A stretch of 64,000 bases of DNA. Source: Anaerolineales bacterium. GTDB lineage: Bacteria; Chloroflexota; Anaerolineae; Anaerolineales; UBA11579. The stretch lies in contig JAHBVC010000001.1 of assembly GCA_019637755.1 (NCBI GenBank), positions 1,521,104 through 1,585,103 of the forward strand, read 5' to 3'. This document shows, piece after piece, positions 44,347-57,086 of the stretch. The translations under genes and the position numbers were made by a program. The number at the start of each line of letters is the position of its first letter. Positions within the stretch are counted from its first letter, which is position 1. The notes beneath the pieces are model-generated. The model worked only from the letters and a program-made list of their open reading frames with translations, had not been told where the DNA came from and searched no databases.

Positions 44347-44374
44347 GCGCTCAACCCTAAAAGTTGCTTCCTAA

Positions 44375-44404
44375 GACGGGCTGCTTAGCAGCCCGTCTTT
44401 TTTT
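44375..44404 (+). terminator. rho-independent terminator
   Basis: GACGGGCTGC-tta-GCAGCCCGTC followed by TTTTTTT. Confidence 0.85.
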
Positions 44405-44599
44405 GTCTCCATCGCTATCGTGACAAAAAACACATGCACATGAGTAATTTTTCTGGCGGAAACTTTAGAGGAAAATTAGTGTTACTATCTTTAGGTATAT
44501 GTGCAACGCATGCAATTCTGTGCAGACGAAGCCGTATATGCAAGGGGGCGCCTGGGGTCTTTTACCCGGCGCGTTTTTGCAAGCGAGGGCCGTGTGACG

Positions 44600-45562
44600 A
44601 TGCAAGATTATGAGCGCATGGCTCTGCTGGCACAAATTGCAGAGCTGTATTACATGCAAAACATGAGCCAAGCTGAAATCGCGCACCGTTTTGGGTTCTC
44701 TCGCTCCAAGGTTTCGCGCCTGATCACCGAATCGCGTGAAACTGGCCTGGTCCAAATCCGCATCAATCATCCCGTGCGGCGCGACTCCATTCTCGAAGAG
44801 CGCCTGGCCAAAACTTTCGGCCTGCACAGCGCCCACGTCCTGCAAACCAGCCTGTATACCGAAAGCCAGAGCCTGCGCACCCTGGGCCGCCTGGGCGCCT
44901 ACTACCTCAGCGAGCATTTGGCGCCCAACAGCACCCTGGGCATCTCCTGGGGCACGGCCATTTTTGAAGTCGCCCAGGCGCTGCGCAAACGCAACTACCC
45001 CGAATTACGCATCGTGCAGATCATCGGCTCCATCGGTTACGGTGACCCTGCGGTGGATGGGCCAGAGCTGGCGCGCAACATCGCCGCGGTCTTCTCAGGC
45101 AAGTATTTCACCCTCAACGCTCCAGTGATCGTACAAGACCAGCATGCACGGGATACCTTGCTCAATGAGCGCCATATTCAAGAAGTGCTGGCGCTCGGCC
45201 TGCGCGCGGATTACTACCTGGTGGGCATCGGCTCCACCACACCCGGCTATTCTGCCCTGGTGCGCGCCGGCAGCCTGCCCGCCGCCGAGATGGATGCGAT
45301 CATTCAGGCTACAGGCGCCGTGGGCGATATCTGCGCCCGGGTGTATGACCAGAACGGGAATTTCTCCGGCTTCGATTTCAACCAGCGCGTCGTGGGCATC
45401 TCGTTGCAGGAGCTGCGCGATGCCAAGGGGACGGTGGTGGGCATCGCCGGTGGCGAAGCCAAGGCACCGGCCATCCTTGGCGCCTTGCGCGGCCGCCTGA
45501 TCGACGTGCTTATTACGGACGACAAGGCGGCGGAGAAGGTGCTGGAGTTGCACTCCAACTAG
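44600..45562 (+). CDS. SorC/DeoR-type sugar-binding transcriptional regulator
   Basis: LLAQIAELYYMQNMSQAEIAHRFGFSRSKVSRLITESRETGLVQIRI plus a sugar-phosphate-binding C-terminal domain. Start at MQDYE (44600). Confidence 0.85.
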   Translation: MQDYERMALLAQIAELYYMQNMSQAEIAHRFGFSRSKVSRLITESRETGLVQIRINHPVRRDSILEERLAKTFGLHSAHVLQTSLYTESQSLRTLGRLGAYYLSEHLAPNSTLGISWGTAIFEVAQALRKRNYPELRIVQIIGSIGYGDPAVDGPELARNIAAVFSGKYFTLNAPVIVQDQHARDTLLNERHIQEVLALGLRADYYLVGIGSTTPGYSALVRAGSLPAAEMDAIIQATGAVGDICARVYDQNGNFSGFDFNQRVVGISLQELRDAKGTVVGIAGGEAKAPAILGALRGRLIDVLITDDKAAEKVLELHSN

Positions 45563-45583
45563 ACCATCAGCGAAAGACGGACT

Positions 45584-45859
45584 ATGGGCATTCTCAGAAC
45601 CACCATCCAACATGAAGCCGGCCTGCATGCAAGACCGTTAGCCCAATTCGTCAAGACCGTTAGAGCCTATGATGCCGAGGTGCAGGTGACCAACCTCACT
45701 CGCGGCAAAGGGCCCGTGCCGGGGGCCAGCCCGGTGAAGCTACTCCTGCTGGCTGTCCTCAAAGATCACGTAGTTGAAATCCAGGCCGATGGCCCGCAAG
45801 CGCAAGAAGTGCTGCAGGCCTTGCAGACCTTGATCCACGAAAACTTTGGAGAGCACTGA
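45584..45859 (+). CDS. ptsH: phosphocarrier protein HPr
   Basis: IQHEAGLHARPLAQFV (active-site His). Confidence 0.9.
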   Translation: MGILRTTIQHEAGLHARPLAQFVKTVRAYDAEVQVTNLTRGKGPVPGASPVKLLLLAVLKDHVVEIQADGPQAQEVLQALQTLIHENFGEH

Positions 45860-46281
45860 TGCTGGATTTCCTTTCTGAAAATATCGCCGTTCTTGGCGTA
45901 GCCCTTTTGCTGATGTGGGGCTTGCAATTTGCCTTCACCTACATCCAGATGCGCAAATTCTACGCACGCCTCAAAGTGGTGCGCCAGGCGGGGCTGACTG
46001 CGGTGGGCAAAGGCGGCGGCCAATACCGCGGCCGCGTCTATGGAGTGCTCACCGTGAATAATGCCAAGCAGGTCATCCATGCCGAGAAAATGTCCGGCTG
46101 GTCAAACTTCTCTGGCTTGAAGCCCGTGCCCGAACTGATCGGTTTATCCCTACATGACATAGTGGATGAGACCAAGCCCTTACCGGTCTCTCAAAAACTT
46201 TCTGATGCCTTCCGCGATGCCGCGGCGTATCTGCTTGATGCTGAAAAGCAGACCCTCCCCGAAGCAGACCCCGGTAAATAA
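45859..46281 (+). CDS. gutM: GutM-like glucitol operon activator
   Basis: N-terminal TM helix, then FAFTYIQMRKFYARLKVVRQAGLTAVGKGGGQYRGRVYGVLTV, collinear with E. coli GutM. The start overlaps the ptsH stop. Confidence 0.75.
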   Translation: MLDFLSENIAVLGVALLLMWGLQFAFTYIQMRKFYARLKVVRQAGLTAVGKGGGQYRGRVYGVLTVNNAKQVIHAEKMSGWSNFSGLKPVPELIGLSLHDIVDETKPLPVSQKLSDAFRDAAAYLLDAEKQTLPEADPGK

Positions 46282-46376
46282 ATCCCAAGCACAAGTAATA
46301 GGAGGAACCCACCCAGCGATTGCCGAAATGTCTCACCTACACCCCTAATCGACTTATTAGAGGAGAGTCTCAGACT

Positions 46377-46916
46377 ATGGATGCTTTAGTACATGCAGCA
46401 GAATGGTTCATTGGTTTGTTCCAACAGGGCGGGGCTGTGTTCCTTTCATTGGTCGGCGGCATTATTCCGCTGCTGATTGTTTTGCTTACCGGTGTCAACG
46501 CCCTCGTGGCCCTGATCGGCCCCGAGAAGATTGACAAGGTGGGTGAATGGGCCGCCCGCGACGGGATTATCTACTACCCCGTGCGCTACATCTTGCTCCC
46601 CTTCCTGGCCGTGTTCTTCCTGACCAACCCTATGGCTTACACCATGGGGCGCTTCCTCCCCGAGCGCTTCAAGCCGGCGTTTTACGATGCCGCCGTGTCT
46701 TACGTTCACCCGCCGCTGGGTATCTTCCCCCACATCAATCCGGGTGAATTGTTCGTCTGGCTGGGTATCGCCGCGGGCATTGAATCGCTGGGCCTCTCCA
46801 CCGTGCCTCTGGCGCTGTGGTACCTGGTTGTCGGCCTGATCGTCATCTTCATCCGTGGCATTGTGACTGAGCGCATTACCGCCATCATGTGGGCGCGCCG
46901 CACGGCTGCGAAGTAA
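46377..46916 (+). CDS. srlA: PTS glucitol/sorbitol-family EIIC component
   Basis: MDALVHAAEWFIGLFQQGGAVF...NPMAYTMGRFLPE..FPHINPGELF, collinear with SrlA. AGAGGAGAG SD upstream. Confidence 0.9.
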   Translation: MDALVHAAEWFIGLFQQGGAVFLSLVGGIIPLLIVLLTGVNALVALIGPEKIDKVGEWAARDGIIYYPVRYILLPFLAVFFLTNPMAYTMGRFLPERFKPAFYDAAVSYVHPPLGIFPHINPGELFVWLGIAAGIESLGLSTVPLALWYLVVGLIVIFIRGIVTERITAIMWARRTAAK

Positions 46917-46938
46917 GAGAAGAAGGAGAAACTAAACA

Positions 46939-47472
46939 ATGAATGCATTCCTTGTAAAAGTTGGCCGTGGCGTTGGTGGTGTGGTCGGTGCTTTGTACCA
47001 GGCCGGCCGCGATGCCGTTGATCAGGTCGTTGTAAACATTCTGCCCTTCATGGCTTTCATCAGCCTGGTGATCGGTATCATCCTCGCCACTGGCGTGGGT
47101 GACTGGATCGCCAACATGCTCGCCCCGCTGGCGGGCAGCCTGGTGGGCCTGCTGATCCTCTCCGTGATCATCGCCATTCCGGTGCTCTCGCCCCTGTTGG
47201 GCCCCGGCGCGGTGATCGCCCAGATCATCGGCACCCTGTTGGGCAGCACCCTGCTGGCCAATGGCAGCATCCCCCCGGCGTACGCGCTGCCGGCGCTGTT
47301 CGCCATCAACCCGCAGGTGGGTTGTGACTTCATCCCCGTCGGTCTGGCGCTGGGTGAAGCCGAGCCCGAGACGGTGGAAGTAGGCGTTCCGGCGGTGTTG
47401 TTCTCCCGCCTCATCACCGGCCCTGTGGCGGTGTTGATCGCCTTCCTGTTCATGCCCCTGCTTCCCTACTAA
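46939..47472 (+). CDS. srlE: PTS glucitol-family EIIC2 membrane domain (equivalent to the SrlE C-terminal half) as a separate gene
   Basis: [32 protein letters not shown]...[16 protein letters not shown]...[21 protein letters not shown] matches the C-terminal half of E. coli SrlE. Confidence 0.85.
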
Positions 47473-47484
47473 GCACTGCTTTGA

Positions 47485-47513
47485 GCCGGGAGGGGAATCT
47501 TTCCCCTCCCGGC
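47485..47513 (+). promoter_or_regulatory. strong intercistronic hairpin (13-bp GC-rich stem, no U-tract)
   Basis: GCCGGGAGGGGAA-tct-TTCCCCTCCCGGC, in the 88-nt gap between the two srlE-derived genes. Confidence 0.5.
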
Positions 47514-47560
47514 CTCAACCCATCTACAAACGGAACTTCGGACAAGAGAGGATTAAGACG

Positions 47561-47941
47561 ATGAGCAAGCAATACAAAAAGGTCAAAATTTCCGCCGGGC
47601 CACGCGGCTGGGGCGGGCCCCTGGTGATCGAGCCCAAGCCGGGTAAGGATCTGATCTATTGCGTCACCGGCGGCGGCATCCACCCCCTGGCCCAACACAT
47701 TGCCGATCTAACCGGTGGCACCGCTTTTGATGGCTTTCGCTCCAAGGCCGGCTTTGACGAGATCGCCGTCGCCATCATCGACTGTGGCGGTACGGCGCGG
47801 GTGGGCGTATACCCAATGAAGGGTGTGCTCACCGTGGATGTGTATGCCACCAAGCCGTCTGGCCCGCTGTTCCGCTTCATCAAAGAGAACGTGTTCGTTT
47901 CTGGCGTCACCGCGGACCAGGTCGAACTGATCGAAGACTAA
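47561..47941 (+). CDS. srlE: PTS glucitol-family EIIB domain (equivalent to the SrlE N-terminal half) as a separate gene
   Basis: GPRGWGGPLVIEP..GKDLIYCVTGG...AIIDCGGTARVGVYP (phospho-Cys motif). Confidence 0.9.
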   Translation: MSKQYKKVKISAGPRGWGGPLVIEPKPGKDLIYCVTGGGIHPLAQHIADLTGGTAFDGFRSKAGFDEIAVAIIDCGGTARVGVYPMKGVLTVDVYATKPSGPLFRFIKENVFVSGVTADQVELIED

Positions 47942-47959
47942 TTCGCAGAGCTAGGCAGC

Positions 47960-48325
47960 ATGGTTAAGTATCAGGCACGCGTTACTCACATCGGCCCATA
48001 TGTTGCCGAATTTATTGCAGAAAATGTGTTGGTGTTCTTTGGCGGGCAGGCGCCCGAAGAGCTGGCCGAATTTGCCATTTTGCACGATGGCCAGCAGCTA
48101 GAGGGGCAAGTGATGGCGGGCGACCGCCTGTTCTTGAATGACGAGGCCTTTCAAGTGTTGGCGGTGGGCGAGGTGGCGAATGCCAACCTGGCCAGCCTGG
48201 GCCATCTGGTGGTCAAAGTCAACGGCCAGCCTGAGCCTGAAATGCCAGGGGATGTATGTGTGGAAATGAAGGCGCTGCCCACTATTGAGGTGGGCACCCA
48301 GTTGCGGATTGAGGATCCTGAGTAG
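47960..48325 (+). CDS. srlB: PTS glucitol-family EIIA component
   Basis: Collinear with SrlB: ...AVGEVANANLASLGHLVVKVNG...MPGDVCVE. Confidence 0.9.
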   Translation: MVKYQARVTHIGPYVAEFIAENVLVFFGGQAPEELAEFAILHDGQQLEGQVMAGDRLFLNDEAFQVLAVGEVANANLASLGHLVVKVNGQPEPEMPGDVCVEMKALPTIEVGTQLRIEDPE

Positions 48326-48329
48326 AAAA

Positions 48330-49640
48330 ATGAAAACATTGCGCGAGCGTTTGCGAGAGTTTGAAGCCCGCCAGGGCCACCCAATTCGGGTGGGCTTGGT
48401 GGGAGCCGGCCAGATGGGGACTGGCCTGATTGGTCAAATGGAATTAATGGACGGCATGAAGGCCGTTGCCGTGACCGACGTGCTACCACGCCGCGCCTAT
48501 GACGCCTTCCACGAAGCCGAAGTCGATCCGCAGCTCATCGCTGAGGCCGCTAGCGCCGCCGAAGCGGATGCCCTCATCGCTGCCGGCAAGCGCGCCGCGC
48601 TGCAATCTACCGCGGAGTTGCTGAAAATTGCCAACCTGGATGTCATCGTTGAATCGACCGGCATTCCTGAAATTGGCGCCGAAGTGTGCCTGGGCGCCAT
48701 CCAAGCCGGCAAACACATCGTCAATATGAATGTGGAGGCCGATGCCACGATTGGCTATTACCTCGGGCAGCAGGCCAAGGCCGCCGGGGTGGTCTACACC
48801 CTGGCCGCCGGCGATGAGCCGGGGGCGATCAAGGAAATTTACGATTTTGCCGATGCGCTGGGTTTTCGCATCGTTGCCGTAGGCAAAGGCAAGAACAACC
48901 CGCTCAACCGTGCTTCCAATCCGGACAGCGTGGCGGAGAAGGCGCGCAGCCGCAAGATGAGCCCCAAGATGCTCGCCTCGTTCGAAGATGGCACCAAGAC
49001 GATGGTGGAGATGACCAGCATTGCCAACGGTATCGGTTTTGTACCCGAGGTGCGCGGTGCCCACGGGCCGGATGTTACCGTCAAGGACCTGGCCAAAGTC
49101 TTTGTGCCCAAGGCGGATGGTGGCTTGCTGGAGGGCAGCGGCGTGGTGGACTATGCCGTTGGCCCGGCGCCCGGCGTGTTCGTGATCATCACCACCGATC
49201 GTGAGAAAGTGATCCGCGATTTGAACTATCTCGGCGTGAGCAGCGGCGGCAACGGCTATTGGAGCCTGTACCGCCCTTATCACCTGGCTAACCTGGAGAC
49301 GCCGATCTCGATCGCCCACGCCGCGTTGGAGGGGCTCTCGACCCTGGTGACGCTGCAGCCGCCCACCGCTGAGACGATCACGGCAGCCAAGCGCGATCTC
49401 AAAGCCGGCGAGCGCATTGATGCGCTGGGTGGTTTTACCGTCTACGGCATGATCGAGAAAGCCAGTGTGGCGCGCCAGCAAAACTTGCTGCCGCTGGGTT
49501 TGGCGGTGGGCGCCACCCTGGTGAACGATGTGCCGATGGGCCAGGCCTTGCGCTATGAGGATGTGCAGTTGGATGAAAGCCAACTGATCGTCAAGCTGCG
49601 CCGCGCTCAGGATGAATTGGTGGCGGCCCAACAGGGCTAA
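48330..49640 (+). CDS. NAD(P)-binding oxidoreductase with a SAF domain (COG4091, homoserine dehydrogenase-like)
   Basis: IRVGLVGAGQMGTG Rossmann motif. C-terminal SAF-like segment AAKRDLKAGERIDALGGFTVYG. Start at MKTL (48330). Confidence 0.75.
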   Translation: MKTLRERLREFEARQGHPIRVGLVGAGQMGTGLIGQMELMDGMKAVAVTDVLPRRAYDAFHEAEVDPQLIAEAASAAEADALIAAGKRAALQSTAELLKIANLDVIVESTGIPEIGAEVCLGAIQAGKHIVNMNVEADATIGYYLGQQAKAAGVVYTLAAGDEPGAIKEIYDFADALGFRIVAVGKGKNNPLNRASNPDSVAEKARSRKMSPKMLASFEDGTKTMVEMTSIANGIGFVPEVRGAHGPDVTVKDLAKVFVPKADGGLLEGSGVVDYAVGPAPGVFVIITTDREKVIRDLNYLGVSSGGNGYWSLYRPYHLANLETPISIAHAALEGLSTLVTLQPPTAETITAAKRDLKAGERIDALGGFTVYGMIEKASVARQQNLLPLGLAVGATLVNDVPMGQALRYEDVQLDESQLIVKLRRAQDELVAAQQG

Positions 49641-49641
49641 T

Positions 49642-50331
49642 ATGCGCAAACCGGCATCTGTCGCCCAGGCGACGGGCATCGTCGAGCGGTTATCGGCTAC
49701 CTATGGCCACTTGTGGGGGCGTAAGCCGCACACGGATGGCCAGTTGGCCGGGCGCCTGGGCGCCGAGCTGCGCGAAGTCTTCGCCAGCCCGGCCCAGTTG
49801 CAGGCACTGAGTACGCATGCCCGCCAGGCGGCCGAATTGGGCCTGGTGGCGGGCCGCTTGGGTGAAATCAGCCAGCGGCTGGAGCAAGGCAAGTTTCTGG
49901 TGACGGCCGCCGAGAGCTGGTTTTACCAACTTGCGGATGCCGAGCTATTGCTGGCCGGTGAACGCAACCCTGCCGGCCCGCAAGGCGCGGCACTGCCGGC
50001 TCATTGGGCCTGGCACCTGCTCGGCTACCAGCAGCACCCGGCTGCGGGCGCCAGCTTGCTGGGCCAGCCGGCGGCCGCCATGGCGCTGCTGGCCGCTGGC
50101 CGCCTGCCCGATCTGGGCCCTTTGCCGCGTGCCAGCCACTTGGGCACGCTGGCCTATTGCGCTTCGGCCAGTACACCCTCGCCCGCGAGCATCGGCGCAG
50201 CGCGGGTTCTCTTTATTCAAGGAGCCGGCGTACTGGTATTGGCCAGCAGCGCCGCGCAGGCCATTAGTGACCTGCATTTAGTCAACCGCCTGTCTGAGAT
50301 CAGCCTATTGCAGACCCGCGGCATCGATTGA
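49642..50331 (+). CDS. hypothetical protein, degenerate class II aldolase/adducin-like fold
   Basis: Collinear by eye with FucA-type aldolases (GLVAGRLGEISQRLEQGKFLVTAA.., ..VLFIQGAGVLVLASSAAQA..). The His metal ligands and the catalytic Glu are replaced. Confidence 0.5.
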   Translation: MRKPASVAQATGIVERLSATYGHLWGRKPHTDGQLAGRLGAELREVFASPAQLQALSTHARQAAELGLVAGRLGEISQRLEQGKFLVTAAESWFYQLADAELLLAGERNPAGPQGAALPAHWAWHLLGYQQHPAAGASLLGQPAAAMALLAAGRLPDLGPLPRASHLGTLAYCASASTPSPASIGAARVLFIQGAGVLVLASSAAQAISDLHLVNRLSEISLLQTRGID

Positions 50332-50344
50332 GGTTTGACAGAGC

Positions 50345-51337
50345 ATGGCAAAGACCAAAAACTCTAAGACGTCCCCAGTGGCCGCAGCAAGCACGCTGAG
50401 TGACGCGCAGCTGCACGAAATGCTGTACACGATGATGGTGATCCGGCGCTTCGAAGAAAAAGCCCTGGAGCTGTATTCATTGGGCAAAGTGCACGGCACG
50501 ATGCACCTCTCCATCGGGCAAGAGGCCACCGCCGTGGGCGCTTCCGCGGCGCTCACCCAGCAAGACTATTTGCTGAATACGCACCGCGGCCACGGCCATT
50601 GCCTGGCCTGGGGCAGCCAGGCCGATTTGATGATGGCTGAATTCATGGGCAAGGAAACTGGCTACTGCCGCGGCCGCGGTGGCTCGATGCACATTGCCAA
50701 TGTAGACGCCAACAACCTGGGCGCTAACGGCATTGTGGCCGGCGGCCTGCCGATCTCGGTCGGCGTGGGGCTGAGCATCAAATCGCGCAACACGGAACAG
50801 GTTGTGATGGTGGTCTTTGGCGATGGCGCCTCGAATGAGGGCGCCTTCCATGAATCGCTCAATATGGCCAGCATTTGGAACCTGCCAGTCATTTTCCTGT
50901 GTGAGAACAACCAATACGCCATGTCCATGCCCGTCGAAAAGAGCATGCGCGTCGAGCGCATCAGTGAGCGGGCGGCGGCATACGGCATGTACGGGGTAAC
51001 TGTGGATGGCAACGATCCGCAGGCCGTCTTTGCCGCGGTGCTGCGGGCACGCCAACAGGCGGTGGCAGGCCATGGCCCTACGTTGATCGAATGCAACACC
51101 TATCGCTATATGGGCCACTCGAAGAGTGATCGCCAGGCCTATCGCACCCGCGAAGAAGTCAAGGCCTGGATGGATAAAGATCCGATCGAGCGCCTGGCCG
51201 GCAATTTGGGGCTGAAGGAAAGCGCCAAAGAGGCCTTGTTCAAGAAAGCCGAAGCCGAAATTGCCGAGGCAGTGAGTTTTGCTGAGGCCAGCCCCGAGCC
51301 GGACCCGGCTGACATTATGGAGGGCGTGTATGCCTAG
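50345..51337 (+). CDS. TPP-dependent dehydrogenase E1 alpha subunit (pyruvate/acetoin dehydrogenase type)
   Basis: [30 protein letters not shown]...[10 protein letters not shown]...GDGASNEG...ENNQYAMS. Confidence 0.9.
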
Positions 51338-52334
51338 CGCCAACGGTACCCGCGAGATCACTTATGTTGAAGCCGTCCGCGAGGCGCTGACCCAGGCGAT
51401 GCAGGCGGATGAGCGCGTCTTCCTTATCGGCGAAGATATTGGCGTATACGGTGGTGCCTTTGGCGTCTCCGCCGGGATGCACGCCCAGTTTGGTGATCAG
51501 CGCGTGATCGATACCCCGATCTCCGAGGCGGCCATCGTGGGCGCCTGCGTGGGTTCGGCGCTCACCGGTATGCGCCCGGTGGGCGAGATCCAGTTTATGG
51601 ATTTCATTACCCTGGGCATGGAGCAGTTGGTGCTGCAGGCCGCCAAGGTGCGCTTTATGTTTGGCGGCAAAGCCAGCGTGCCGATGGTGCTACGCACCCC
51701 CGGCGGCTCTGGCACTGGCGCGGCGGCCCAGCACTCCGAGAGCCTGGAGACCTGGTTCACGCATGTGCCTGGCCTCAAAGTCGTCATGCCCAGCTCCCCG
51801 TATGATGCCAAGGGCCTGCTGCTGGCGGCGATTGCCGATGAGAACCCGGTGATCTTTGTAGAGCACAAGCTGCTCTACAAGATCAGCGGCCCGGTACCCG
51901 AAGAACCCTACACCATTCCGCTGGGCCAGCCCAACATTGTGCGCAGTGGCCAGCATCTCACCGTGGTGGCTACCTCGATCATGGTGCAGCGCGCCAAGCA
52001 GGCCGCCGAGGAACTGGCCAAAGAGGGCATTGAGCTCGAGATCGTTGATCCGCGCACCCTCAATCCGCTGGATGACACGCTAATGATCCAATCGGTGATG
52101 AAGACCGGCAAAGCGCTGATCGTGCACGAATCGGTCAAGACCAGCGGCTATGGCGCCGAATTGGCGGCACGCATTGTGGAGAGCGAAGCGTTCGATTACC
52201 TGGATGCCCCTGTGCGCCGCCTGGCTGGGTTGGATATCCCGATCCCCTATAACCGCAACCTCGAATACCATGCCGTACCCCAGGTGGAGAACATCGTGGC
52301 CGAGGCGCGCAAACTTGTGCGCGGGGAATACTAA
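51330..52334 (+). CDS. TPP-dependent dehydrogenase E1 beta subunit
   Basis: [38 protein letters not shown]...[11 protein letters not shown]. The start overlaps the E1 alpha stop. Confidence 0.9.
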
Positions 52335-53746
52335 TGGCCAAAGAAGTCATCATGCCGGTCTTCGGCTTCAATCAGGAGAGCAGCCAGATCGTCTCCTGGC
52401 TGGTGCAGGATGGCCAGGCAGTGGAGCAAGGCGACCCAATCGCTGAGGTCACCACGGATAAGATCAACATGGAGATCGAGGCCCCGGCCAGCGGCGTGTT
52501 CCGCGCGCTGGGCTACGCCGCTGGCGAAACCGTGCCAGTCACCACGGTGATCGCCTACATCCTGGCGCCCGGCGAAAAAGCACCGGCGGCGCCCGCCAAA
52601 GCGCCCGTCAGCCCTGCAGCGGTCGTGCAGGCTGCTGAAGTGCCAGCGCCGCGCCCCGCACCAGGTATCGAGCAGCCCCAACAAGCGCCCCCAGCGGCCC
52701 TGCCGGCCTATGCGCCGCCGGCCGCAGAGGGGCGCGTGGCCGCCGTGTCGGACCTGGCGGCCAAAGTAGCCAGCGAGCACGGTATCGACTTGGCGGCGGT
52801 GCGCGGCAGCGGAGTGGGTGGGCGCATAACCCGCAAGGATGTGGAGCAATACCTTGGTGCTGCGCAGCCCCCGGCTAGTGCCTCTGATGCCAAGGTGCGT
52901 GCCACGCCCGCGGCACGCCAAGCGGCACGCCAGGGGAACATTGCCTTGCACGCCGTACGCGGCAGTGGCCCACGCGGGCGCGTGCAGGCGGCCGATGTGG
53001 CCGCCGCGCCTCGCGCGGTACAGGCGGCTCCAGGCGCGCAAACCCACCAGCCAGGGGGCGTGCAGCACATCCCGCTTAGCCAGATGCGCCGCACGATTGC
53101 GGCCAACTTACAGCGTAGCGCACAGGAAGCGCCACACATTTATTTTCAGGTGGATGTGGACATCAGCGCGCTCAACGATATGGTGGCGGTGGCCAACCGC
53201 CAGGCGGCCAGCGGCAGCCCGAAAGTGACCCTGACCGCCGTGCTGGCCAAGGCCGTGGCCTGGGCGCTCACGCGCCATCCCCGGCTCAATAGCCACCTCG
53301 CCGCGCAGGAGATCTTGCAGTACGCCGATATTCACCTCGGTCTGGCGGTGGCGCTGGAGGATGGCCTGATCGTGCCGGTCATTCATCAGGCGCAGAGCAA
53401 AAGCATCAGCACCCTGGCCAGCGAAGTGAATGACTTGGCGCAGCGCGCTCGCAGTGGTAAGCTCAAGCCCGCAGATTTGCAAGGCGCAACCTTTACCATC
53501 TCCAACCTCGGCATGTTCCGCGTCGATCGCTTCACCGCCATCATCAACCCGCCCCAGGTAGGCATTCTGGCGGTGGGGCGGGCCAGCCAGCGGGTCCTGC
53601 CGGATGCAAGCGGACAGCCGCAGGTGCGGCCCGTTGCCACGCTGACCCTCTCGGTGGACCATCGCGTGATTGATGGCGCCGTAGCCGCGGCCTTCCTCGA
53701 TGAGCTCAGCACAGTTTGTGAACGGCCGCATTTGATGGTACTGTAA
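52334..53746 (+). CDS. dihydrolipoamide acyltransferase E2
   Basis: Lipoyl motif AEVTTDKINMEIEAP. Two E3-binding-type segments. Catalytic DHRVIDG. The start overlaps the E1 beta stop (TAATG). Confidence 0.9.
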   Translation: MAKEVIMPVFGFNQESSQIVSWLVQDGQAVEQGDPIAEVTTDKINMEIEAPASGVFRALGYAAGETVPVTTVIAYILAPGEKAPAAPAKAPVSPAAVVQAAEVPAPRPAPGIEQPQQAPPAALPAYAPPAAEGRVAAVSDLAAKVASEHGIDLAAVRGSGVGGRITRKDVEQYLGAAQPPASASDAKVRATPAARQAARQGNIALHAVRGSGPRGRVQAADVAAAPRAVQAAPGAQTHQPGGVQHIPLSQMRRTIAANLQRSAQEAPHIYFQVDVDISALNDMVAVANRQAASGSPKVTLTAVLAKAVAWALTRHPRLNSHLAAQEILQYADIHLGLAVALEDGLIVPVIHQAQSKSISTLASEVNDLAQRARSGKLKPADLQGATFTISNLGMFRVDRFTAIINPPQVGILAVGRASQRVLPDASGQPQVRPVATLTLSVDHRVIDGAVAAAFLDELSTVCERPHLMVL

Positions 53747-53776
53747 GCGCCAATCTAAACTCATTAGGCGACTTGA

Positions 53777-55516
53777 ATGGAAACCATGCTGGACAATCTG
53801 GCCATCAAGGGGGTGCCTGCTGCTTCAGGTATTGCAATAGGGAGACCGTGGGTGTACCAACCCCACGCGGCGCGCGTGGAGCGGCGCAGCATCAGTGATG
53901 TAGCGGCTGAGTTGGCGCGGCTGGCGGCGGCCAAGCAGACCGCCAAACAGCAACTGGCTGAACTGCAGCAAAAAACGCTGGCTGAGATCGGCGAGCAGGA
54001 AGCGGCGATCTTTGAAGCGCACCAAATGTTTCTGGAAGACCCCGAGCTGGATAAAGCCATTCACCAGCGCATCGAAAGCCAGCAGATCTGCGCTGAGGCC
54101 GCGGTGGAGGATGCGATCGAGCATGCTGCGGCAGAACTGGCCGCCTTGGAAGACGAATACTTCCAGGCGCGCGCCGTGGACCTGCGTGATGTTGGCCGCC
54201 GCTTGATCCAATTGCTCCTCGGCGTAGATACGCAGCTCAAAGGGTTCCCGGATGAGCCCGTGATCGTTTTCGCCGAGGATCTGACCCCTTCCGATACCGT
54301 GCAATTTGACCGCAGCCGTTTGCTGGCTCTGGTCACCATTCAGGGCGGGCCAACCTCGCACACCGCCATCCTGGCCAATAGCATGGGCATTCCTGCGGTG
54401 GTCAGTGCCCCCTTGGAGCTGGCTCAGGCCAAAGCCGCCGCGCTGGCCATCGTGGATGGGCGCAATGGCGAAGTGATCTTTGCCCCCAGCGAAGCCAAAC
54501 TGGCTGAGATGCACAGCCAGCAGGCCGCCTGGCTGGCCCAGCGCGCCGCCGCACAAACCCGCAGCCACGAGGCCGCCATCACCACCGATGGTCACCAGGT
54601 GGAAGTGGTAGCCAATATCGGCAATGTGCAAGATGCGCAGCAAGGCTTGGAGTACGGCGCGGAGGGCGTGGGCCTGTTTCGCACCGAATTCCTGTTCCTT
54701 GACCGCCATAGTATGCCCACAGAAGATGAGCAGACGGCCGCCTATGGCGCGATCTTTGAGGTACTGCGCGGCAAGCCGGTGGTAGTGCGCACGCTGGATA
54801 TCGGCGGCGATAAATCGGTTGATTATTTGGGCTTCAAAACTGAAGCCAATCCCTTCTTGGGCTGGCGTGCCATCCGCATGATGAGTGAGCGCCCGGATCT
54901 GCTACTTTCCCAGTTCCGCGCCCTGTTGCGCGCCGGCGTGGATACGGATCTGCGCATCATGGTGCCGATGGTCTCGCGCCTCACCGAGGTGGAGCAGGCG
55001 CGCGGCTTGTTACGCGTCGCCCAAGAGGAGCTGGCCAGCGAAGGTACCCCGTTCTGCCAGACGCTGCAGTTTGGCATCATGATCGAAGTACCCTCGGCAG
55101 TACTGGTGGCCGAGCACATTGCCCCACTGGTTGATTTCTTCAGTATCGGCACGAATGACCTGACCCAGTACACCATGGCGGTGGACCGTACCAACGAGCG
55201 TGTGGTCAACATTGCCAGCCCCTTTCACCCCAGCGTGCTGCGTTTGATCAAGCTCACCATCGATGCCGCGCATGCGCAGGGCAAATGGGTGGGGGTGTGC
55301 GGCGAATTCGCCGGCAACCCGCTGGCCGTGCCGTTGTTGCTGGGCATGGGGCTGGACGAGTTCAGTATGTCGCCGGTGAGCGTGCCGGTGGTCAAAGATT
55401 TGATCCGGCGCTTCTCGTTGGAGGAAGCACAGGATATTGCCAGCCGGGCCTTGCGCCTGCCCAAGAGTGAGGCGGTGCAGACCTACTTGCAATCCGTGGT
55501 GAGTGCCAAACAATAA
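53777..55516 (+). CDS. ptsI: phosphoenolpyruvate-protein phosphotransferase (PTS Enzyme I)
   Basis: GVPAASGIAIG..., GGPTSHTAILANSMGIPAVV (active-site His), FFSIGTNDLTQY, and a C-terminal Cys in WVGVCGE. Confidence 0.95.
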   Translation: METMLDNLAIKGVPAASGIAIGRPWVYQPHAARVERRSISDVAAELARLAAAKQTAKQQLAELQQKTLAEIGEQEAAIFEAHQMFLEDPELDKAIHQRIESQQICAEAAVEDAIEHAAAELAALEDEYFQARAVDLRDVGRRLIQLLLGVDTQLKGFPDEPVIVFAEDLTPSDTVQFDRSRLLALVTIQGGPTSHTAILANSMGIPAVVSAPLELAQAKAAALAIVDGRNGEVIFAPSEAKLAEMHSQQAAWLAQRAAAQTRSHEAAITTDGHQVEVVANIGNVQDAQQGLEYGAEGVGLFRTEFLFLDRHSMPTEDEQTAAYGAIFEVLRGKPVVVRTLDIGGDKSVDYLGFKTEANPFLGWRAIRMMSERPDLLLSQFRALLRAGVDTDLRIMVPMVSRLTEVEQARGLLRVAQEELASEGTPFCQTLQFGIMIEVPSAVLVAEHIAPLVDFFSIGTNDLTQYTMAVDRTNERVVNIASPFHPSVLRLIKLTIDAAHAQGKWVGVCGEFAGNPLAVPLLLGMGLDEFSMSPVSVPVVKDLIRRFSLEEAQDIASRALRLPKSEAVQTYLQSVVSAKQ

Positions 55517-55526
55517 AGGAACCAGC

Positions 55527-56366
55527 GTGGCTGCAGATCTTGATCAGCAAGTGATGGAAGACTATCTCGAGTTTGCGATAGGCGCCGCCCGCGAGGCTGG
55601 CGCCCTGTTGCTCGAAGGCTTTGATAAGCAAAACAAAGTAATGCACAAGAGTTCAGCGGTGGATTGGGTCACCGAGTACGACCGCGCCTCTGAGCAACTG
55701 GTGGTGGCGCGCATCACGGCCGCATACCCTACCCACGGCCTGGTGGGCGAAGAGGGTAGCCGCCGTGAGGGGCAAGACGGCTACACCTGGTACATCGATC
55801 CGCTGGATGGCACCACCAACTATGCCCATCATTTTCCGATGTTTGCTGTGTCGATCGCGCTGTATCAGGGGCAAACGCCGCTGGTAGGCGTGGTGTATGA
55901 CCCGCTGCGTGACGAGCTGTTCAGTGCACTGCGCGGGCAGGGCGCCTACCTAACGCGGGGCAGCGAACGCAAGCCGTTGCAGGTGACCCAGGCGCAGGTG
56001 CTGGCTACCAGCTTGCTGGCTACCGGCTTCCCGTATGATTCGCATACCAGCAGCCACAACAACGTCACCGAGGTGGGGGCGTTCGTGCGCCGGGCGCAAG
56101 GCTTGCGCCGGGCGGGTTCAGCCGCCCTGGATATGTGCTATGTGGCCGCCGGGCGCCTGGATGGCTATTGGGAGTTCAAGCTGTTCGCCTGGGATATGGC
56201 CGCGGCACGCCTGGTGGTGGAGGAAGCCGGCGGGCGCTTCACCCAGCCGGATGGCGCGCCGATCGAGATGGTGGAGAAAATGGCCGCCTGCGTGAGCAAC
56301 GCTCACATTCATGCTGAGATGCTGGCGGTGCTGGCCGAAGCGGCCCAGCAGCGCGGCGCAGAGTAG
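55527..56366 (+). CDS. inositol monophosphatase family protein
   Basis: WYIDPLDGTTNYAHHFP, WDMAAA. GTG start with an AAGGA SD 6 nt upstream. The ORF-track start 55503 overlaps ptsI. Confidence 0.85.
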   Translation: MAADLDQQVMEDYLEFAIGAAREAGALLLEGFDKQNKVMHKSSAVDWVTEYDRASEQLVVARITAAYPTHGLVGEEGSRREGQDGYTWYIDPLDGTTNYAHHFPMFAVSIALYQGQTPLVGVVYDPLRDELFSALRGQGAYLTRGSERKPLQVTQAQVLATSLLATGFPYDSHTSSHNNVTEVGAFVRRAQGLRRAGSAALDMCYVAAGRLDGYWEFKLFAWDMAAARLVVEEAGGRFTQPDGAPIEMVEKMAACVSNAHIHAEMLAVLAEAAQQRGAE

Positions 56367-56373
56367 TTTCCTT

Positions 56374-56379
56374 TATAAT
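56374..56379 (+). promoter_or_regulatory. -10 TATAAT, 6 nt upstream of ATG 56386 (leaderless candidate)
   Basis: ttTATAATttttgcATG. Confidence 0.5.
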
Positions 56380-56385
56380 TTTTGC

Positions 56386-56757
56386 ATGCATAGCGCACCG
56401 CACGTCTGCCCGGTTTGCCAAGGTGAGCTGGTCCTCACCCGCCTGGTATGCCGCGATTGTGAAACCGCCATTGAGGGCCGCTTTGAGGCCGGCCCATTTT
56501 CCCGGCTCAGCCCCGAGCAATTGCATTTTGTAGAAGCCTTTGTGCGCAATGAGGGCAAGATTACGCGCATGGAGGATGAGTTCAAGCTCTCTTACCCCAC
56601 CATCCGTAGCCGTTTGCATGAAGTCATCCGCGCCCTGGGATATGAGCCCGGTAAAGACAGCGCGGTTCCACTGACGGAAGAAGAGCGCCGCAGGATACTG
56701 GAAGATCTGGATAGTGGCAAGATCACTTCCGAAGAAGCGATGCGCATGTTGGAATAG
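56386..56757 (+). CDS. DUF2089 domain protein (zinc ribbon plus HTH)
   Basis: CPVCQGELVLTRLVCRDCETAIEGRF...LSPEQLHFVEAFVRNEGKITRME. Confidence 0.8.
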   Translation: MHSAPHVCPVCQGELVLTRLVCRDCETAIEGRFEAGPFSRLSPEQLHFVEAFVRNEGKITRMEDEFKLSYPTIRSRLHEVIRALGYEPGKDSAVPLTEEERRRILEDLDSGKITSEEAMRMLE

Positions 56758-56768
56758 CAATACAAAGC

Positions 56769-56796
56769 AAAATGCTGCCCTTGGGCAGCATTTTTT
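56769..56796. terminator. bidirectional rho-independent terminator
   Basis: AAAATGCTGCCCttGGGCAGCATTTT. Confidence 0.85.
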
Positions 56797-56798
56797 GT

Positions 56799-57086
56799 TT
56801 AACTTTCTGTGCTGGGCTTGCTGGCCGGCTTTTCGCTTTTGCTCTCGCTGGCTGGGCTGGCCTCTTTGCCTTTTTTGCCGTTGCTCGGGGCCGGGCTGGC
56901 CGCCTTGTGGCTCTTATCGGTCACATAGAAGCCGGAGCCTTTGAACACCACGCCCGCGGCGCGGTACACCTTGTGCAGCGCATGTTTGCGGCATTCAGGG
57001 CATACCTTGAGTGGGCTGTCATCAAAACTTTGTTGGCGGTCAAATTCATGGCCGCAGTTGTCACAACGATAGGTATAGACCGGCAT
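56799..57086 (-). CDS. FmdB-family zinc-ribbon protein
   Basis: MPVYTYRCDNCGHEFD...CPECR with a low-complexity Lys/Ser/Pro tail. Confidence 0.85.
   Translation of the reverse strand: MPVYTYRCDNCGHEFDRQQSFDDSPLKVCPECRKHALHKVYRAAGVVFKGSGFYVTDKSHKAASPAPSNGKKGKEASPASESKSEKPASKPSTES

Follow-up and report, generated by a model that had tools for sequence, protein, structure and literature searches.

A glucitol-family PTS operon of an Anaerolineales bacterium with a DXR-II-family oxidoreductase and an embedded E1/E2 complex: a putative route for methylerythritol catabolism

In the 64-kb window of Anaerolineales DNA considered here (the whole stretch analysed, to which all coordinates refer), a run of 15 genes was identified that, in a reading we hold with moderate confidence, probably serves for the catabolism, with a possible salvage role, of 2-C-methyl-D-erythritol (ME) or of a very close analogue. 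The Gut-family PTS, served by an HPr and an Enzyme I encoded in the operon, would import ME and deliver methylerythritol 4-phosphate (MEP), which a type II DXP reductoisomerase (DXR-II), working in reverse, would convert to DXP. This compound, a methyl alpha-hydroxyketone like acetoin, may then be oxidatively cleaved by E1ab/E2, using TPP, lipoate and CoA, to acetyl-CoA and D-glyceraldehyde 3-phosphate (GAP), with E3 supplied in trans. The equilibrium of DXR lies on the MEP side, and the irreversible cleavage of DXP would pull the unfavourable reversal; expression would depend on the substrate through the SorC-type regulator and GutM. We infer here which substrate is used, in which direction the flux runs and that DXP is the substrate of E1. 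No description of ME degradation via a reversed DXR and an E1/E2 complex was found in the searchable literature. If true, the proposal would account for the presence of DXR-II in bacteria devoid of the MEP pathway, and methylerythritol, a sugar alcohol of plants and microbes, would be burned by the first steps of isoprenoid synthesis run backwards.

Gene content and boundaries of the operon

Gene identities were assigned with Pfam and NCBIfam profiles (Table 1). All 15 genes lie on one strand within about 12 kb (44600–56757), in the order SorC-type regulator, HPr, GutM, four-part glucitol-family PTS, oxidoreductase and metal-less aldolase-like protein, followed by E1 alpha, E1 beta, E2, PtsI, an IMPase-family phosphatase and a DUF2089 protein, thus confirming the order that the initial annotation had given from the regulator to ptsI. 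The tight junctions it had described were also found, all of them being overlaps of 1–8 nt or gaps of at most 95 nt after refinement of the starts against homologues. The unit is flanked by two clean terminators. The one previously indicated as the only clean terminator (44375..44404) is indeed present, with its stem at 44373–44399 followed by a T run, and ends the branched-chain amino-acid ABC transporter genes located upstream. A second one was detected at 56769–56794, so that the unit likely runs past ptsI, where the array had been implied to end (55516), through the IMPase-family and DUF2089 genes up to 56757. A single transcription unit covering 44600–56757 is a plausible prediction from the sequence.

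Table 1. Features of the predicted operon, its flanking terminators and the candidate E3 gene (window coordinates).
Feature	Position	Strand	Evidence and remarks
Dihydrolipoyl dehydrogenase (E3)	21501..22901	+	Pyr_redox_2 2.6e-78 and Pyr_redox_dim
Intrinsic terminator, 5' boundary of unit	44373..44409	+	12-bp stem, 8 GC pairs, then TTTTTGT
SorC/DeoR-type sugar-phosphate-sensing transcriptional regulator	44600..45562	+	Pfam Sugar-bind 8.8e-65 plus HTH
HPr (ptsH)	45584..45859	+	PTS-HPr 2.5e-20; GLHARP active-site His motif
GutM-type activator	45859..46281	+	PF06923 5.1e-17; 1-nt overlap with ptsH stop codon
Gut-family PTS IIC (SrlA-like)	46377..46916	+	EII-GUT 1.5e-71; NCBIfam SrlA 233 bits vs cutoff 150
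Gut-family PTS membrane part (C-terminal half of SrlE)	46939..47472	+	EIIBC-GUT_C 1.7e-42
Gut-family PTS IIB (N-terminal half of SrlE)	47561..47941	+	EIIBC-GUT_N 1.4e-47
Gut-family PTS IIA (SrlB-like)	47960..48325	+	PTSIIA_gutA 4.5e-35
DXR-II/DRL-family NAD(P)-dependent oxidoreductase	48330..49640	+	DRL_cat + NAD_binding_3 + SAF, 1e-61
Class II aldolase-fold protein without metal site (AldL)	49642..50331	+	weak Aldolase_II 1.5e-9
TPP-dependent E1 alpha, GHSKSD subfamily	50345..51337	+	E1_dh 5.3e-88
E1 beta	51330..52334	+	Transket_pyr 1.4e-45; Transketolase_C 2.4e-36
E2 dihydrolipoyl acyltransferase	52334..53746	+	lipoyl domain, two E3-binding stretches, catalytic domain (2.3e-79)
Enzyme I (ptsI)	53777..55516	+	TIGR01417 623 bits; profile match 2.1e-116; GPTSHTA motif
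IMPase-family phosphatase	55527..56366	+	Inositol_P 5.2e-72; start 55503, 55527 or 55554
DUF2089 zinc-ribbon/HTH protein	56386..56757	+	last gene before terminator; candidate system member
Intrinsic terminator, likely 3' end of unit	56769..56804	+	11-bp stem (56769-56794), then TTGTTT

The regulator starts at the ATG in position 44600, with GAGGG upstream, and agrees in length with its homologues; it matches the LsrR model at 9.9e-42, and a SorC/DeoR-type regulator was found in most of the related loci. E. coli SrlA, SrlE and SrlB match window proteins at 33–56% identity: 48% for IIC with SrlA, 56% for the SrlE-C-like protein with SrlE residues 162–310 and 41% for the SrlE-N-like IIB with residues 4–122. 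SrlE is split in two genes, with the N-terminal part coming after the C-terminal one. As for the SDR gene, its reported absence holds true within the 64-kb window, where tblastn with E. coli SrlD gave zero matches at E ≤ 1e-3.

The oxidoreductase belongs to the DXR-II family

The protein originally described as a SAF-domain oxidoreductase is a member of the type II DXP reductoisomerase (DXR-II/DRL) family. With the start codon set by homologues, it matches the Brucella DRL structures 3UPY/3UPL (E = 6e-99, 40% identity), and it keeps both the fosmidomycin/substrate anchors K191, K193 and T229 and the residues G121, H250 and R320 discriminating DXR-II from DLO (residue roles from PMC3847144). 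Position 250/351 differs between cluster-linked members. Chloroflexus aurantiacus has the mevalonate pathway only, and its DXR-II complements a dxr-deficient E. coli, that is, shows DXP-to-MEP activity (PMC3847144); exactly this protein of strain J-10-fl (ABY34555.1) sits in a SorC-E1a-E1b-E2-GutM-PTS-DRL-PtsI arrangement. In complementation, the second Ochrobactrum DXR-II paralogue probably has genuine DXP-to-MEP activity as well, and the Brucella DXR-II is a proven biosynthetic enzyme (PMC3847144). The Brucella paralogues are split, the biosynthetic one standing alone (locus L093) and the second one lying within a cluster (L094).

The E1/E2 complex and its E3 supply

The cluster-linked E1 alpha can be placed in a subfamily of its own, neither bona fide PDH nor Aco-type. 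With the two NCBIfam equivalog models of PDH E1 alpha, the window protein stays under the cutoff each time (358 bits vs 393.85; 273 vs 411); it retains an intact TPP motif GDG...NN and carries the signature residues T52, H169, K260 and W275; T52 replaces human alpha-F61 and K260, beside the site-1 Ser, replaces alpha-M265, both positions being at the active-site entrance. The loop GHSKSD occurs in 40 of the 42 linked E1 alpha sequences, against GHSMSD of PDH and GHFEGD of Aco-type enzymes, the latter seen in a genuine Enterococcus plasmid aco operon (with sigma-54 regulator and butanediol dehydrogenase) and in an actinobacterial Aco-type paralogue. The E1 beta shares 55–92% identity with cluster-linked E1 beta of other phyla versus 47% with an Aco-type paralogue. 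As counterpoints to ME catabolism, no DXS-like phosphate-binding arginines were identified in E1 beta, its score with the NCBIfam subfamily model of PDH E1 beta is above the cutoff (371 vs 321), the best PDB matches of the E1 subunits are PDH E1 subunits and the nearest solved structure to E1 alpha is human PDH E1 alpha.

The E2 shows the catalytic DHRVIDG and the lipoyl-lysine TDKI motifs. The operon has no E3 gene of its own, and the E3 gene located 23 kb upstream, adjoining a second E2 gene (19941–21479), is therefore a candidate donor; its product shares 41.5% identity with the cluster-linked Neobacillus E3.

Conservation of the linkage

Gene neighbourhoods were surveyed in 51 DXR-II loci having at least 5 kb of flanking DNA on each side. 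A gut-type PTS was present in 34 loci, E1ab in 32 and both in 30; a further counterpoint to ME catabolism comes from the 15 loci with neither. The PTS-oxidoreductase-E1ab linkage is kept in at least five phyla (Chloroflexota, Spirochaetota, Bacillota, Actinomycetota, Alphaproteobacteria), with gene order shuffled among the first four, and this recurrence around homologues indicates that the arrangement is not due to chance.

E2 is part of most clusters and E3 of 13 loci. The S. meliloti plasmid pRM41A has no PTS and carries a sugar kinase and an ABC transporter beside regulator-DRL-E1a-E1b-E2-LpdA-LipA; Brucella intermedia combines Gat- and Gut-type PTS with DRL-E1ab and an AcoC-type E2 (lipoyl and alpha/beta hydrolase domains), and an extra Gat-type PTS occurs in some clusters. 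In 10 loci, which belong to several phyla, IspD-family cytidylyltransferase genes were found inside the cluster (best model ispD, 157–219 bits). The substrate of IspD is MEP, and a purely catabolic pathway would have little use for an IspD gene. In Thermanaerothrix, a SorC-E1ab-E2 module accompanies a Gat-type PTS with no DXR-II, and in a further locus (L086) SorC-E1ab-E2 has the IMPase gene alone nearby, with no PTS and no DXR-II. Thus, E1/E2 does not strictly depend on an upstream DXR-II, which fits direct uptake of deoxyxylulose but also a different substrate.

Alternative explanations

Oxidation of a polyol phosphate by the COG4091 enzyme, followed by TPP-dependent cleavage, had already been outlined in the initial annotation. 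This outline is supported by the DXR-II identity, by the conserved linkage and by an E1 alpha that is neither PDH nor Aco, and it is here sharpened to ME, MEP, DXP and finally acetyl-CoA plus GAP. Taken alone, the logic of a PTS, an oxidoreductase and an acyloin-cleaving E1/E2 leaves the substrate unfixed. The imported compound might instead be a different deoxy or branched polyol, for instance a 6-deoxyhexitol, a 1-deoxypentitol or a methyltetrol of other stereochemistry, with the DXR-II homologue forming a 1-deoxy-2-ketose phosphate and E1/E2 yielding acetyl-CoA and an aldose phosphate, as the variable position 250/351, the additional Gat-type PTS and the E1ab-E2 pairs with a Gat-type PTS but no DXR-II would allow. 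We consider this unlikely, though worth keeping in mind, given the conserved substrate anchors, the IspD-family genes pointing to MEP, the DXP-to-MEP activity of the cluster-embedded Chloroflexus enzyme and, probably, of the second Ochrobactrum paralogue (PMC3847144), and the uptake of ME by the Salmonella sorbitol PTS, a gut-type system (Testa et al. 2004, as cited in PMC3994034).

A biosynthetic or salvage function in place of catabolism appears improbable. ME could be salvaged as MEP for isoprenoids, E1ab could act as an alternative DXP synthase (from pyruvate and GAP) feeding DXR-II and, where present, IspD, or DXR-II could turn salvaged MEP into DXP for thiamine and PLP synthesis. The 10 loci with IspD-family genes would suit this idea, as would the biosynthetic Brucella enzyme (PMC3847144) and the PDH E1 (AceE) variants able to produce DXP in vivo (PMC3424233). 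However, the Brucella biosynthetic paralogue is the non-cluster one, Chloroflexus carries the cluster while relying on mevalonate only, high-capacity uptake together with sugar-responsive regulators is what one typically sees in catabolism, and E2, E3 and the LpdA and LipA of pRM41A imply a lipoate-dependent oxidative chemistry needless for a synthase. Least probable of all, in our view, is the other proposal of the initial annotation, an ordinary PDH disposing of the pyruvate derived from PEP, with DXR-II as an unrelated housekeeping passenger. The E1 beta score and the PDB matches speak for a PDH, and the SorC-E1ab-E2-IMPase unit of L086 is what a regulated PDH might look like; against it stand the sub-cutoff scores and invariant non-PDH signature of E1 alpha, the AcoC-type E2 of B. 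intermedia and a DXR-II-E1ab adjacency (up to DRL-E1ab-E2-E3) kept also where an ABC transporter plus kinase take the place of the PTS, so that no conversion of PEP to pyruvate takes place. The adjacency is likewise kept in actinobacteria and alphaproteobacteria, two groups with a housekeeping PDH E1 of the homodimeric AceE type, and in Thermanaerothrix E1ab-E2 would be the sole enzyme of a PTS operon. To our knowledge, no comparable PTS-E1ab linkage exists for other PTS families.

Comparison with known systems

The operon resembles srlAEBD-gutM-srlR-gutQ of E. coli and Salmonella (Gut family, TC 4.A.4) in its SrlA, SrlE and SrlB homologues, in the presence of GutM, in having the gene of the dehydrogenase that receives the polyol phosphate directly downstream of that for IIA and in that the Salmonella system already carries methylerythritol, as noted above. 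It differs in the DXR-II gene occupying the place of SrlD (SDR), in the split and permuted SrlE, in a SorC-type regulator instead of the DeoR-type SrlR and in the presence of HPr, Enzyme I and E1ab/E2 inside the operon. With AcoA/AcoB/AcoC/AcoL it shares the architecture of E1 alpha-beta and lipoyl E2 (plus E3), the AcoC-type E2 of the B. intermedia cluster and, as proposed here, the TPP-dependent oxidative split of a methyl alpha-hydroxyketone to acetyl-CoA and an aldehyde. Unlike Aco, it has the GHSKSD loop, a SorC-type regulator instead of AcoR, a sugar-phosphate uptake context and a putative substrate that is phosphorylated (DXP), with GAP as the aldehyde product.

DXP and MEP are also the intermediates of the two opening steps in the MEP pathway (DXS, DXR-I/DXR-II), whose Brucella enzyme is of the same DXR-II family, and E1, a TPP enzyme homologous to DXS, would in our proposal act on the same C2-C3 bond of DXP. 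In contrast, the direction proposed here is reversed, the cleavage would be oxidative, lipoate/CoA-dependent and yield acetyl-CoA rather than pyruvate, the genes cluster with uptake systems and sugar regulators, and the cluster is found in organisms without the MEP pathway (Chloroflexus). In autoinducer-2 processing (LsrK, LsrG, LsrF, LsrR), the splitting of a phosphorylated 1-deoxy C5 sugar derivative gives acetyl-CoA and triose phosphate, and LsrR is a SorC-family regulator sensing the phosphorylated intermediate. The analogy in outcome and regulator type is only functional, as Lsr uses a kinase, a cupin-less isomerase and the thiolase-like LsrF where a PTS, DXR-II and a TPP/lipoyl complex stand here.

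Accessory genes

AldL and the IMPase-family phosphatase are lineage-specific accessories. The description of AldL as a degenerate aldolase-like protein proved correct, since FucA E73, H92, H94 and H155 (the three Zn-binding His and the catalytic Glu) are all replaced in it and in its homologues. It belongs to a small family, with 80 representatives in 1.84 billion proteins, and among the loci it was found only in four close Chloroflexota ones, full-length in L001, L003 and L085 and shortened in L002. The IMPase-family gene, linked to the module in Chloroflexota, adjoins it in these four and in L086, and in L001 too it is followed downstream by the DUF2089 gene.

Organization of the operon

ORF listing combined with Pfam and NCBIfam scans returned the same gene order that the initial annotation had read directly from the sequence, with gene starts refined here by comparison with homologues. 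With these starts the genes are close-packed throughout the operon, as had been described, neighbours either overlapping by 1-8 nt or lying no more than 95 nt apart. A clean terminator does precede the regulator gene, but it is not the only one, as had been claimed: a second is found downstream of the DUF2089 gene, so that the array, comprised between terminators, probably ends about 1.2 kb past the end first assigned. Because clean intrinsic terminators border the array on both sides, a transcription unit of 15 genes and about 12.2 kb is probable. Scanning the operon for internal sigma-70 promoters and terminators gave no convincing signals, with counts near shuffle expectation, leaving co-transcription neither proven nor disproven, and when the whole window was compared with Rfam in search of a TPP riboswitch or another type of leader, a tRNA was the only match. 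Both HPr and EI are encoded within the operon, thus suggesting a self-sufficient, possibly mobile module.

The terminator preceding the regulator closes the genes of a branched-chain amino-acid ABC transporter (two permeases and a periplasmic binding protein), located directly 5' of the operon. At the other end, a gene coding for a TPR-repeat protein (581 aa) is convergent with the operon; a TPR-repeat gene is also a neighbour of the cluster in the closest relative (locus L001), thus local synteny reaches past the operon. Its closest relatives in the databases assign the window to a MAG of Anaerolineales (Chloroflexota).

Features of the operon and of its surroundings (positions in the window)
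Feature	Position	Strand	Match or motif
E2-E3 pair (orphan)	19941-22901	+
tRNA	39501-39572	+	Rfam
Branched-chain amino-acid ABC transporter genes	41260-44346	+
Terminator	44373-44399
SorC/DeoR-type regulator	44600-45562	+
HPr	45584-45859	+	catalytic motif intact
GutM	45859-46281	+
SrlA-like IIC	46377-46916	+	PF03608 1.5e-71; NCBIfam SrlA 233 bits (cutoff 150)
SrlE membrane half	46939-47472	+	PF07663 1.7e-42
SrlE IIB half	47561-47941	+	PF03612 1.4e-47
IIA-gut	47960-48325	+	PF03829 4.5e-35
DRL_cat/SAF oxidoreductase (DXR-II)	48330-49640	+	PF21135 1e-61, PF03447, PF08666
Class II aldolase-fold protein	49642-50331	+	fold-level match 1.5e-9
E1 alpha	50345-51337	+	catalytic motif intact
E1 beta	51330-52334	+
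E2	52334-53746	+	PF00364, PF02817 (two stretches), PF00198 2.3e-79; DHRVIDG at residue 442
PtsI (EI)	53777-55516	+	catalytic motif intact
IMPase-family phosphatase	about 55527-56366	+
DUF2089 protein	56386-56757	+
Terminator	56769-56794
TPR-repeat protein	57148-58893	-

The operon encodes a complete Gut-family transporter, comprising IIC (EII-GUT), the N- and C-terminal domains of IIBC and IIA-gut, and the E. coli SrlA, SrlE and SrlB proteins share 33-56% identity with their counterparts in the window. In the canonical gut/srl operon the sorbitol-6-phosphate dehydrogenase SrlD, a member of the SDR family, is linked to the transporter. Here, on the contrary, the gene following IIA codes for a type II deoxyxylulose phosphate (DXP) reductoisomerase (DXR-II, see below). 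The absence of an SDR gene, already remarked from the sequence, was borne out by the lack of any tblastn match to E. coli SrlD at E <= 1e-3 across the whole window. When the order of the SrlE halves was compared between the window (46939-47941) and loci L004-L083 from other genomes, they were found split and permuted, with the membrane C-part preceding IIB, in Chloroflexota, Spirochaetota and some actinobacteria (Nocardia, Mycolicibacterium), and in the order IIB then C-part in Bacillota, Streptomyces and Rubrobacteraceae; the final ~26 residues of the N-domain model stay on the C-part protein.

An oxidoreductase of the type II DXP reductoisomerase family

The only solved relatives of the oxidoreductase are the Brucella abortus DRL (DXR-II) structures 3UPL and 3UPY (E = 6e-99); the match to 3UPY covers residues 27-447 and identity with B. 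abortus DRL is 40%. Judged from its sequence, the protein, composed of an N-terminal NAD(P)-binding, a DRL catalytic and a C-terminal SAF domain, is a member of the type II DXP reductoisomerase family. Following the residue roles described for DRL (PMC3847144), the fosmidomycin/substrate anchors K191, K193 and T229 are all kept, together with four of the five positions discriminating DXR-II from DLO1/DLO2 (G121, T229, H250 and R320), V351 being replaced by Thr. K191, K193, G121 and R320 vary little or not at all among the 84 homologues collected: all four occur in each of the 41 DXR-II sequences linked to both PTS and E1 (T229 in 38), and G121 is replaced by Ala in two of the 25 having neither partner.

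The Chloroflexus aurantiacus homologue, 54-55% identical to the window protein, belongs to the same cluster type, the exact J-10-fl protein ABY34555.1 being encoded in the arrangement SorC-E1a-E1b-E2-GutM-PTS-DXR-II-PtsI. C. aurantiacus DXR-II complements a dxr-deficient E. coli, and Chloroflexus uses only the mevalonate pathway (PMC3847144); we infer that ABY34555.1 is the protein employed in that complementation (YP_001634944.1), both being of the same genome and family. The window DXR-II is predicted to interconvert DXP and methylerythritol 4-phosphate (MEP), with indirect support from this complementing homologue. It has also been reported that Finegoldia and Anaerococcus carry DXR-II without any other MEP gene, and that O. 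anthropi and M. loti possess additional paralogues functioning as DXR-II (PMC3847144).

A simple housekeeping DXR of Chloroflexota was rejected as the main reading of the oxidoreductase, because of its fixed place after IIA under sugar regulators, the presence of the cluster in the mevalonate-only Chloroflexus and the split of the Brucella paralogues into solo and clustered ones. As to nomenclature, Brucella DXR-II orthologues (P0345, P0347, P0349 and others) are named '1-deoxy-D-ribulose 5-phosphate reductoisomerase' by NCBI/UniProt, i.e., with ribulose and not xylulose, and the 75%-identical Brucella paralogues carry the name 'NAD(P)H-dependent oxidoreductase' only.

Linkage of DXR-II, PTS and E1ab across phyla

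A DXR-II alignment was searched against one genome per GTDB species, retrieving 80 loci that were annotated by tblastn with the window proteins; 51 of them, flanked on each side by 5 kb or more of sequence, were considered informative. A gut-type PTS was present in 34 of these 51 loci and E1 alpha plus E1 beta in 32, the two occurring together in 30 and both being absent in 15. The neighbourhood survey called for by the initial annotation, conducted here starting from DXR-II, therefore finds the linkage of PTS, oxidoreductase and E1ab kept in several phyla. The adjacency of DXR-II to an uptake/phosphorylation system and to an E1ab with the active-site loop GHSKSD, accompanied by E2, is shared by the window, the 30 loci and four further ones (L085, L088, L091 and L094). 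Carriers are found in Chloroflexota (Anaerolineae, Ardenticatenaceae, Caldilineaceae, Ktedonobacterales and Chloroflexus), Spirochaetota, Bacillota (Salibacterium, Marinococcus, Virgibacillus, Planococcus, Neobacillus, Brevibacillus, Halanaerobium and Tepidanaerobacteraceae) and Actinomycetota (Streptomyces, Nocardia, Mycolicibacterium, Prauserella, Tamaricihabitans and Rubrobacteraceae). In most of the loci with a PTS, DXR-II directly follows IIA-gut, and the E1ab(-E2) block, the regulator and HPr/PtsI are placed differently from locus to locus. Constant membership with shuffled order is a classical signature of functional coupling; by reasoning, and not by computation, chance alone should place a gut-type PTS within 10 kb of any one gene in well under 1% of cases.

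Flanking ORFs of all loci were clustered and the cluster representatives scanned with NCBIfam, showing as recurrent neighbours the dihydrolipoyl dehydrogenase E3 (13 loci), an IspD-family cytidylyltransferase (10 loci) and a galactitol-family EIIC (6 loci). The IspD-family (MEP cytidylyltransferase-like) genes are in or beside the cluster in L015, L019, L022, L024, L025, L031, L048, L060, L064 and L076, from several phyla, some directly upstream of GutM and others in operon with E1ab. It is difficult to see what such genes would do in a pathway that is purely catabolic, or in lineages possibly devoid of the rest of the MEP pathway.

A second conserved DXR-II context, without PTS and E1, was observed in L034, L037, L041, L043, L045, L071, L075 and L079, consisting of a KpsF-like SIS isomerase, a Zn-dependent polyol dehydrogenase, DXR-II and a XylB-like FGGY kinase, with an RpiR regulator in most. 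Seven or eight of the solo DXR-II loci have this setting, which may represent another route involving DXP or MEP.

Discriminating cluster variants

On plasmid pRM41A of Sinorhizobium meliloti Rm41, a sugar kinase and an ABC transporter are divergent from a regulator-DXR-II-E1a-E1b-E2-LpdA-LipA array. DXR-II of Brucella/Ochrobactrum falls in two groups. The B. abortus-type protein, the established biosynthetic DXR of Brucella, is encoded alone, without PTS or E1 neighbours (L093). The paralogue of B. intermedia, roughly 75% identical, is located between a Gat-type (galactitol-family) PTS and E1a-E1b-E2, after which come a SorC regulator, HPr and EI fused into one protein, and a gut-type PTS (L094, CP122439.1, 40724-60043); the E2 of this locus has the AcoC architecture (lipoyl, E3-binding and alpha/beta hydrolase domains).

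In Thermanaerothrix (L084 and L087; 9031-15754) a SorC-E1a-E1b-E2-IIA-IIB-EIIC(Gat) unit with a GHSKSD-type E1 was found, whose PTS is composed of EIIA_2, IIB and EIIC-GAT and which contains neither DXR-II nor any other catabolic enzyme; here E1/E2 may act directly on the product of the Gat-type PTS. Speculatively, the Gat-type systems lacking DXR-II could take up deoxyxylulose and deliver it straight as DXP. One metagenomic contig carries a SorC-E1a-E1b-E2-IMPase unit only.

Features of the E1ab/E2 complex

The E1 alpha of the window scores below both PDH E1 alpha equivalog models (TIGR03182, 358.3 against a cutoff of 393.85; TIGR03181, 273.3 against 411.35), its best structure match being human PDHA1. 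E1 beta passes the PDH E1 beta subfamily model (NF006667, 371 bits against 321), but the solved E1 beta structures of PDH and of BCKDH-like enzymes all lie at about the same distance from it (272-288 bits). Eight E1 alpha positions, conserved in at least 92% of 39 cluster-linked sequences and five of them in 39/39, differ from both human PDHA1 and the Aco-type paralogue of Tamaricihabitans. T52 replaces human alpha-Phe61, two residues before the active-site His63; H169, immediately following the GDG of the TPP motif, takes the place of a Phe; and K260, in the loop gating the active site, takes that of alpha-Met265, the residue next after the regulatory site-1 Ser264. The human numbering (alpha-61, 63, 264 and 265) is the established one, and the alignment numbering was checked through D167 and S264.

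Of the 42 E1 alpha sequences taken from the loci, 40 have the loop GHSKSD, and those of the Sinorhizobium and Brucella clusters have it too. In contrast, PDH (human PDHA1) has GHSMSD, with Phe at alpha-61 in place of Thr52, and the E1 alpha of an Enterococcus plasmid aco operon, 47.5-48% identical, has GHFEGD, as does the Tamaricihabitans paralogue. This aco operon comprises a sigma-54 regulator, lpdA, E1ab, E2 and a butanediol dehydrogenase; no gene for AcoR, AcoX or butanediol dehydrogenase was found near the window operon. On these residues, the cluster-linked E1 is of neither the PDH nor the Aco type. The smaller residue and the two added basic ones at the channel (T52, H169 and K260) would fit a larger, anionic substrate. 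DXS-like phosphate-binding residues were also searched for in E1 beta by profile alignment (E. coli DXS R420, R478, H431 and Y392) and no signal emerged, the aligned positions being either common to all E1 beta or not basic; cluster-specific E1 beta residues were few, mostly shared with the Aco-type paralogue and thus uninformative.

The E2 of the window has the lipoyl domain with a TDKI lipoyl-lysine motif, the E3-binding domain and the catalytic DHRxxDG motif. The operon has no E3 gene. An orphan pair elsewhere in the window, coding for an E2 (512 aa) directly followed by an E3 (466 aa), has no E1 beside it: upstream, on the other strand, is a beta-eliminating lyase, and the downstream ORFs checked code for a glycosyltransferase and for a protein without Pfam match. 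The E3 of this pair likely supplies the E1ab/E2 complex of the operon.

A putative route for methylerythritol degradation

Methylerythritol (ME) is reportedly transported by the Salmonella sorbitol PTS, according to Testa and colleagues (2004). In the scheme we propose, ME would enter via the gut-type PTS and be delivered as MEP, which DXR-II would oxidise and rearrange to DXP; this would be irreversibly cleaved by E1/E2/E3 into acetyl-CoA and GAP, with the net reaction ME + PEP + NADP+ + NAD+ + CoA -> pyruvate + acetyl-CoA + GAP + NADPH + NADH. The DXR reaction is reversible, with MEP favoured. DXP (CH3-CO-CHOH-CHOH-CH2OP) is, as acetoin, a methyl alpha-hydroxyketone; acetoin dehydrogenase converts acetoin into acetyl-CoA and acetaldehyde via hydroxyethyl-TPP and acetyl-lipoamide, and DXS forms DXP from hydroxyethyl-TPP and GAP. 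The scheme uses all the conserved components with no enzyme missing. It would account for E1/E2 standing beside DXR-II under either PTS or ABC plus kinase uptake, for the occasional recruitment of the MEP-using IspD, and for DXR-II in MEP-less bacteria. In its broadest form, type II DXR would be primarily, possibly ancestrally, catabolic, serving a widespread route that degrades environmental ME via MEP and DXP to acetyl-CoA and GAP with a new TPP/lipoyl E1 class acting on a sugar phosphate, and the biosynthetic DXR-II of Brucella and its relatives would be a recruited paralogue; to this reading we assign an about even chance of being right. Perhaps deoxyxylulose would also be degraded, via the Gat-type PTS variants.

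The same pathway logic would hold for another deoxy or branched polyol as substrate, which we consider unlikely. A salvage or biosynthetic function, with E1 acting as a DXP synthase, should be weighed in view of PDH E1 variants able to form DXP (PMC3424233); nevertheless, the presence of E2, E3 and LipA, as well as the separation of the Brucella paralogues into a solo and a clustered one, makes it improbable. That the complex is a plain PDH appears highly improbable, given the E1 alpha signature, the existence of a non-PTS variant and the taxa involved. The earlier suggestion of a PDH consuming the pyruvate derived from PEP during uptake finds no support: E1 alpha falls below the PDH equivalog cutoffs and the DXR-II/E1 module persists with the ABC transporter and kinase of pRM41A, where uptake consumes no PEP, which argues against mere pyruvate disposal.

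Our literature search, with most subscription journals outside its scope, retrieved nothing linking DXR-II to PTS, E1/E2 or catabolism, and nothing on the degradation of methylerythritol or DXP, including DXP cleavage by acetoin dehydrogenase and methyltetrol biodegradation. With parts from known families and a chemistry that would be Aco-like, the new elements would be the ME/DXP-degrading use of DXR-II and the predicted E1 substrate class. The patchy occurrence of DXR-II, present without the MEP pathway or beside a redundant DXR-I, has been a puzzle since 2010-2013, and a February 2026 review still found no defining pattern to its distribution (PMC13001223). If true, the catabolic reading would explain this sporadic distribution and the presence of DXR-II in bacteria without the rest of the MEP pathway, an answer testable in cultured carriers. 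It would also supply, for the first time, a means of breaking down methylerythritol, MEP and DXP, compounds released by plants and stressed bacteria, and 2-methyltetrols are abundant isoprene oxidation products in aerosols. The 2-oxoacid/acetoin dehydrogenase complexes would gain a sugar-phosphate-cleaving member, with the GHSKSD signature usable for annotation. DXR-II and DXP metabolism have practical relevance as targets of antibiotics (fosmidomycin), and an enzyme draining DXP or MEP would be relevant to isoprenoid metabolic engineering.

Accessory genes

Class II aldolases/epimerases such as FucA and AraD have a Zn-binding His triad and Glu73; the protein encoded after DXR-II shares with them a fold-level similarity, but not those residues. 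It is indeed degenerate, as had been noticed, with the FucA triad (H92, H94 and H155) and the catalytic Glu73 all replaced, and the same residues are missing in all 25 aligned members (the window protein and 24 family representatives), which keep instead a GxLxEAS / WH...Y / QP pattern. A sequence search of solved structures gave marginal FucA matches only (E about 0.005). The family is very small (80 representatives in 1.84 billion proteins) and the gene was encountered only among the window's close Chloroflexota relatives; the protein is regarded as accessory. The IMPase-family gene accompanies the module in Chloroflexota only, and its product might act as a relief valve for sugar phosphates or as an enzyme of the FBPase type.

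The full architecture of the window, including the aldolase-like and IMPase genes, is common to the close relatives L001, L003 and L085. In L003, from a related MAG contig, ptsI is called as two adjacent ORFs (15648-17369), and in L002 the same applies to E1 alpha (18826-19792), with the aldolase-like gene shortened to 127 aa; the split ORFs reflect either frameshifts, assembly errors or decay.
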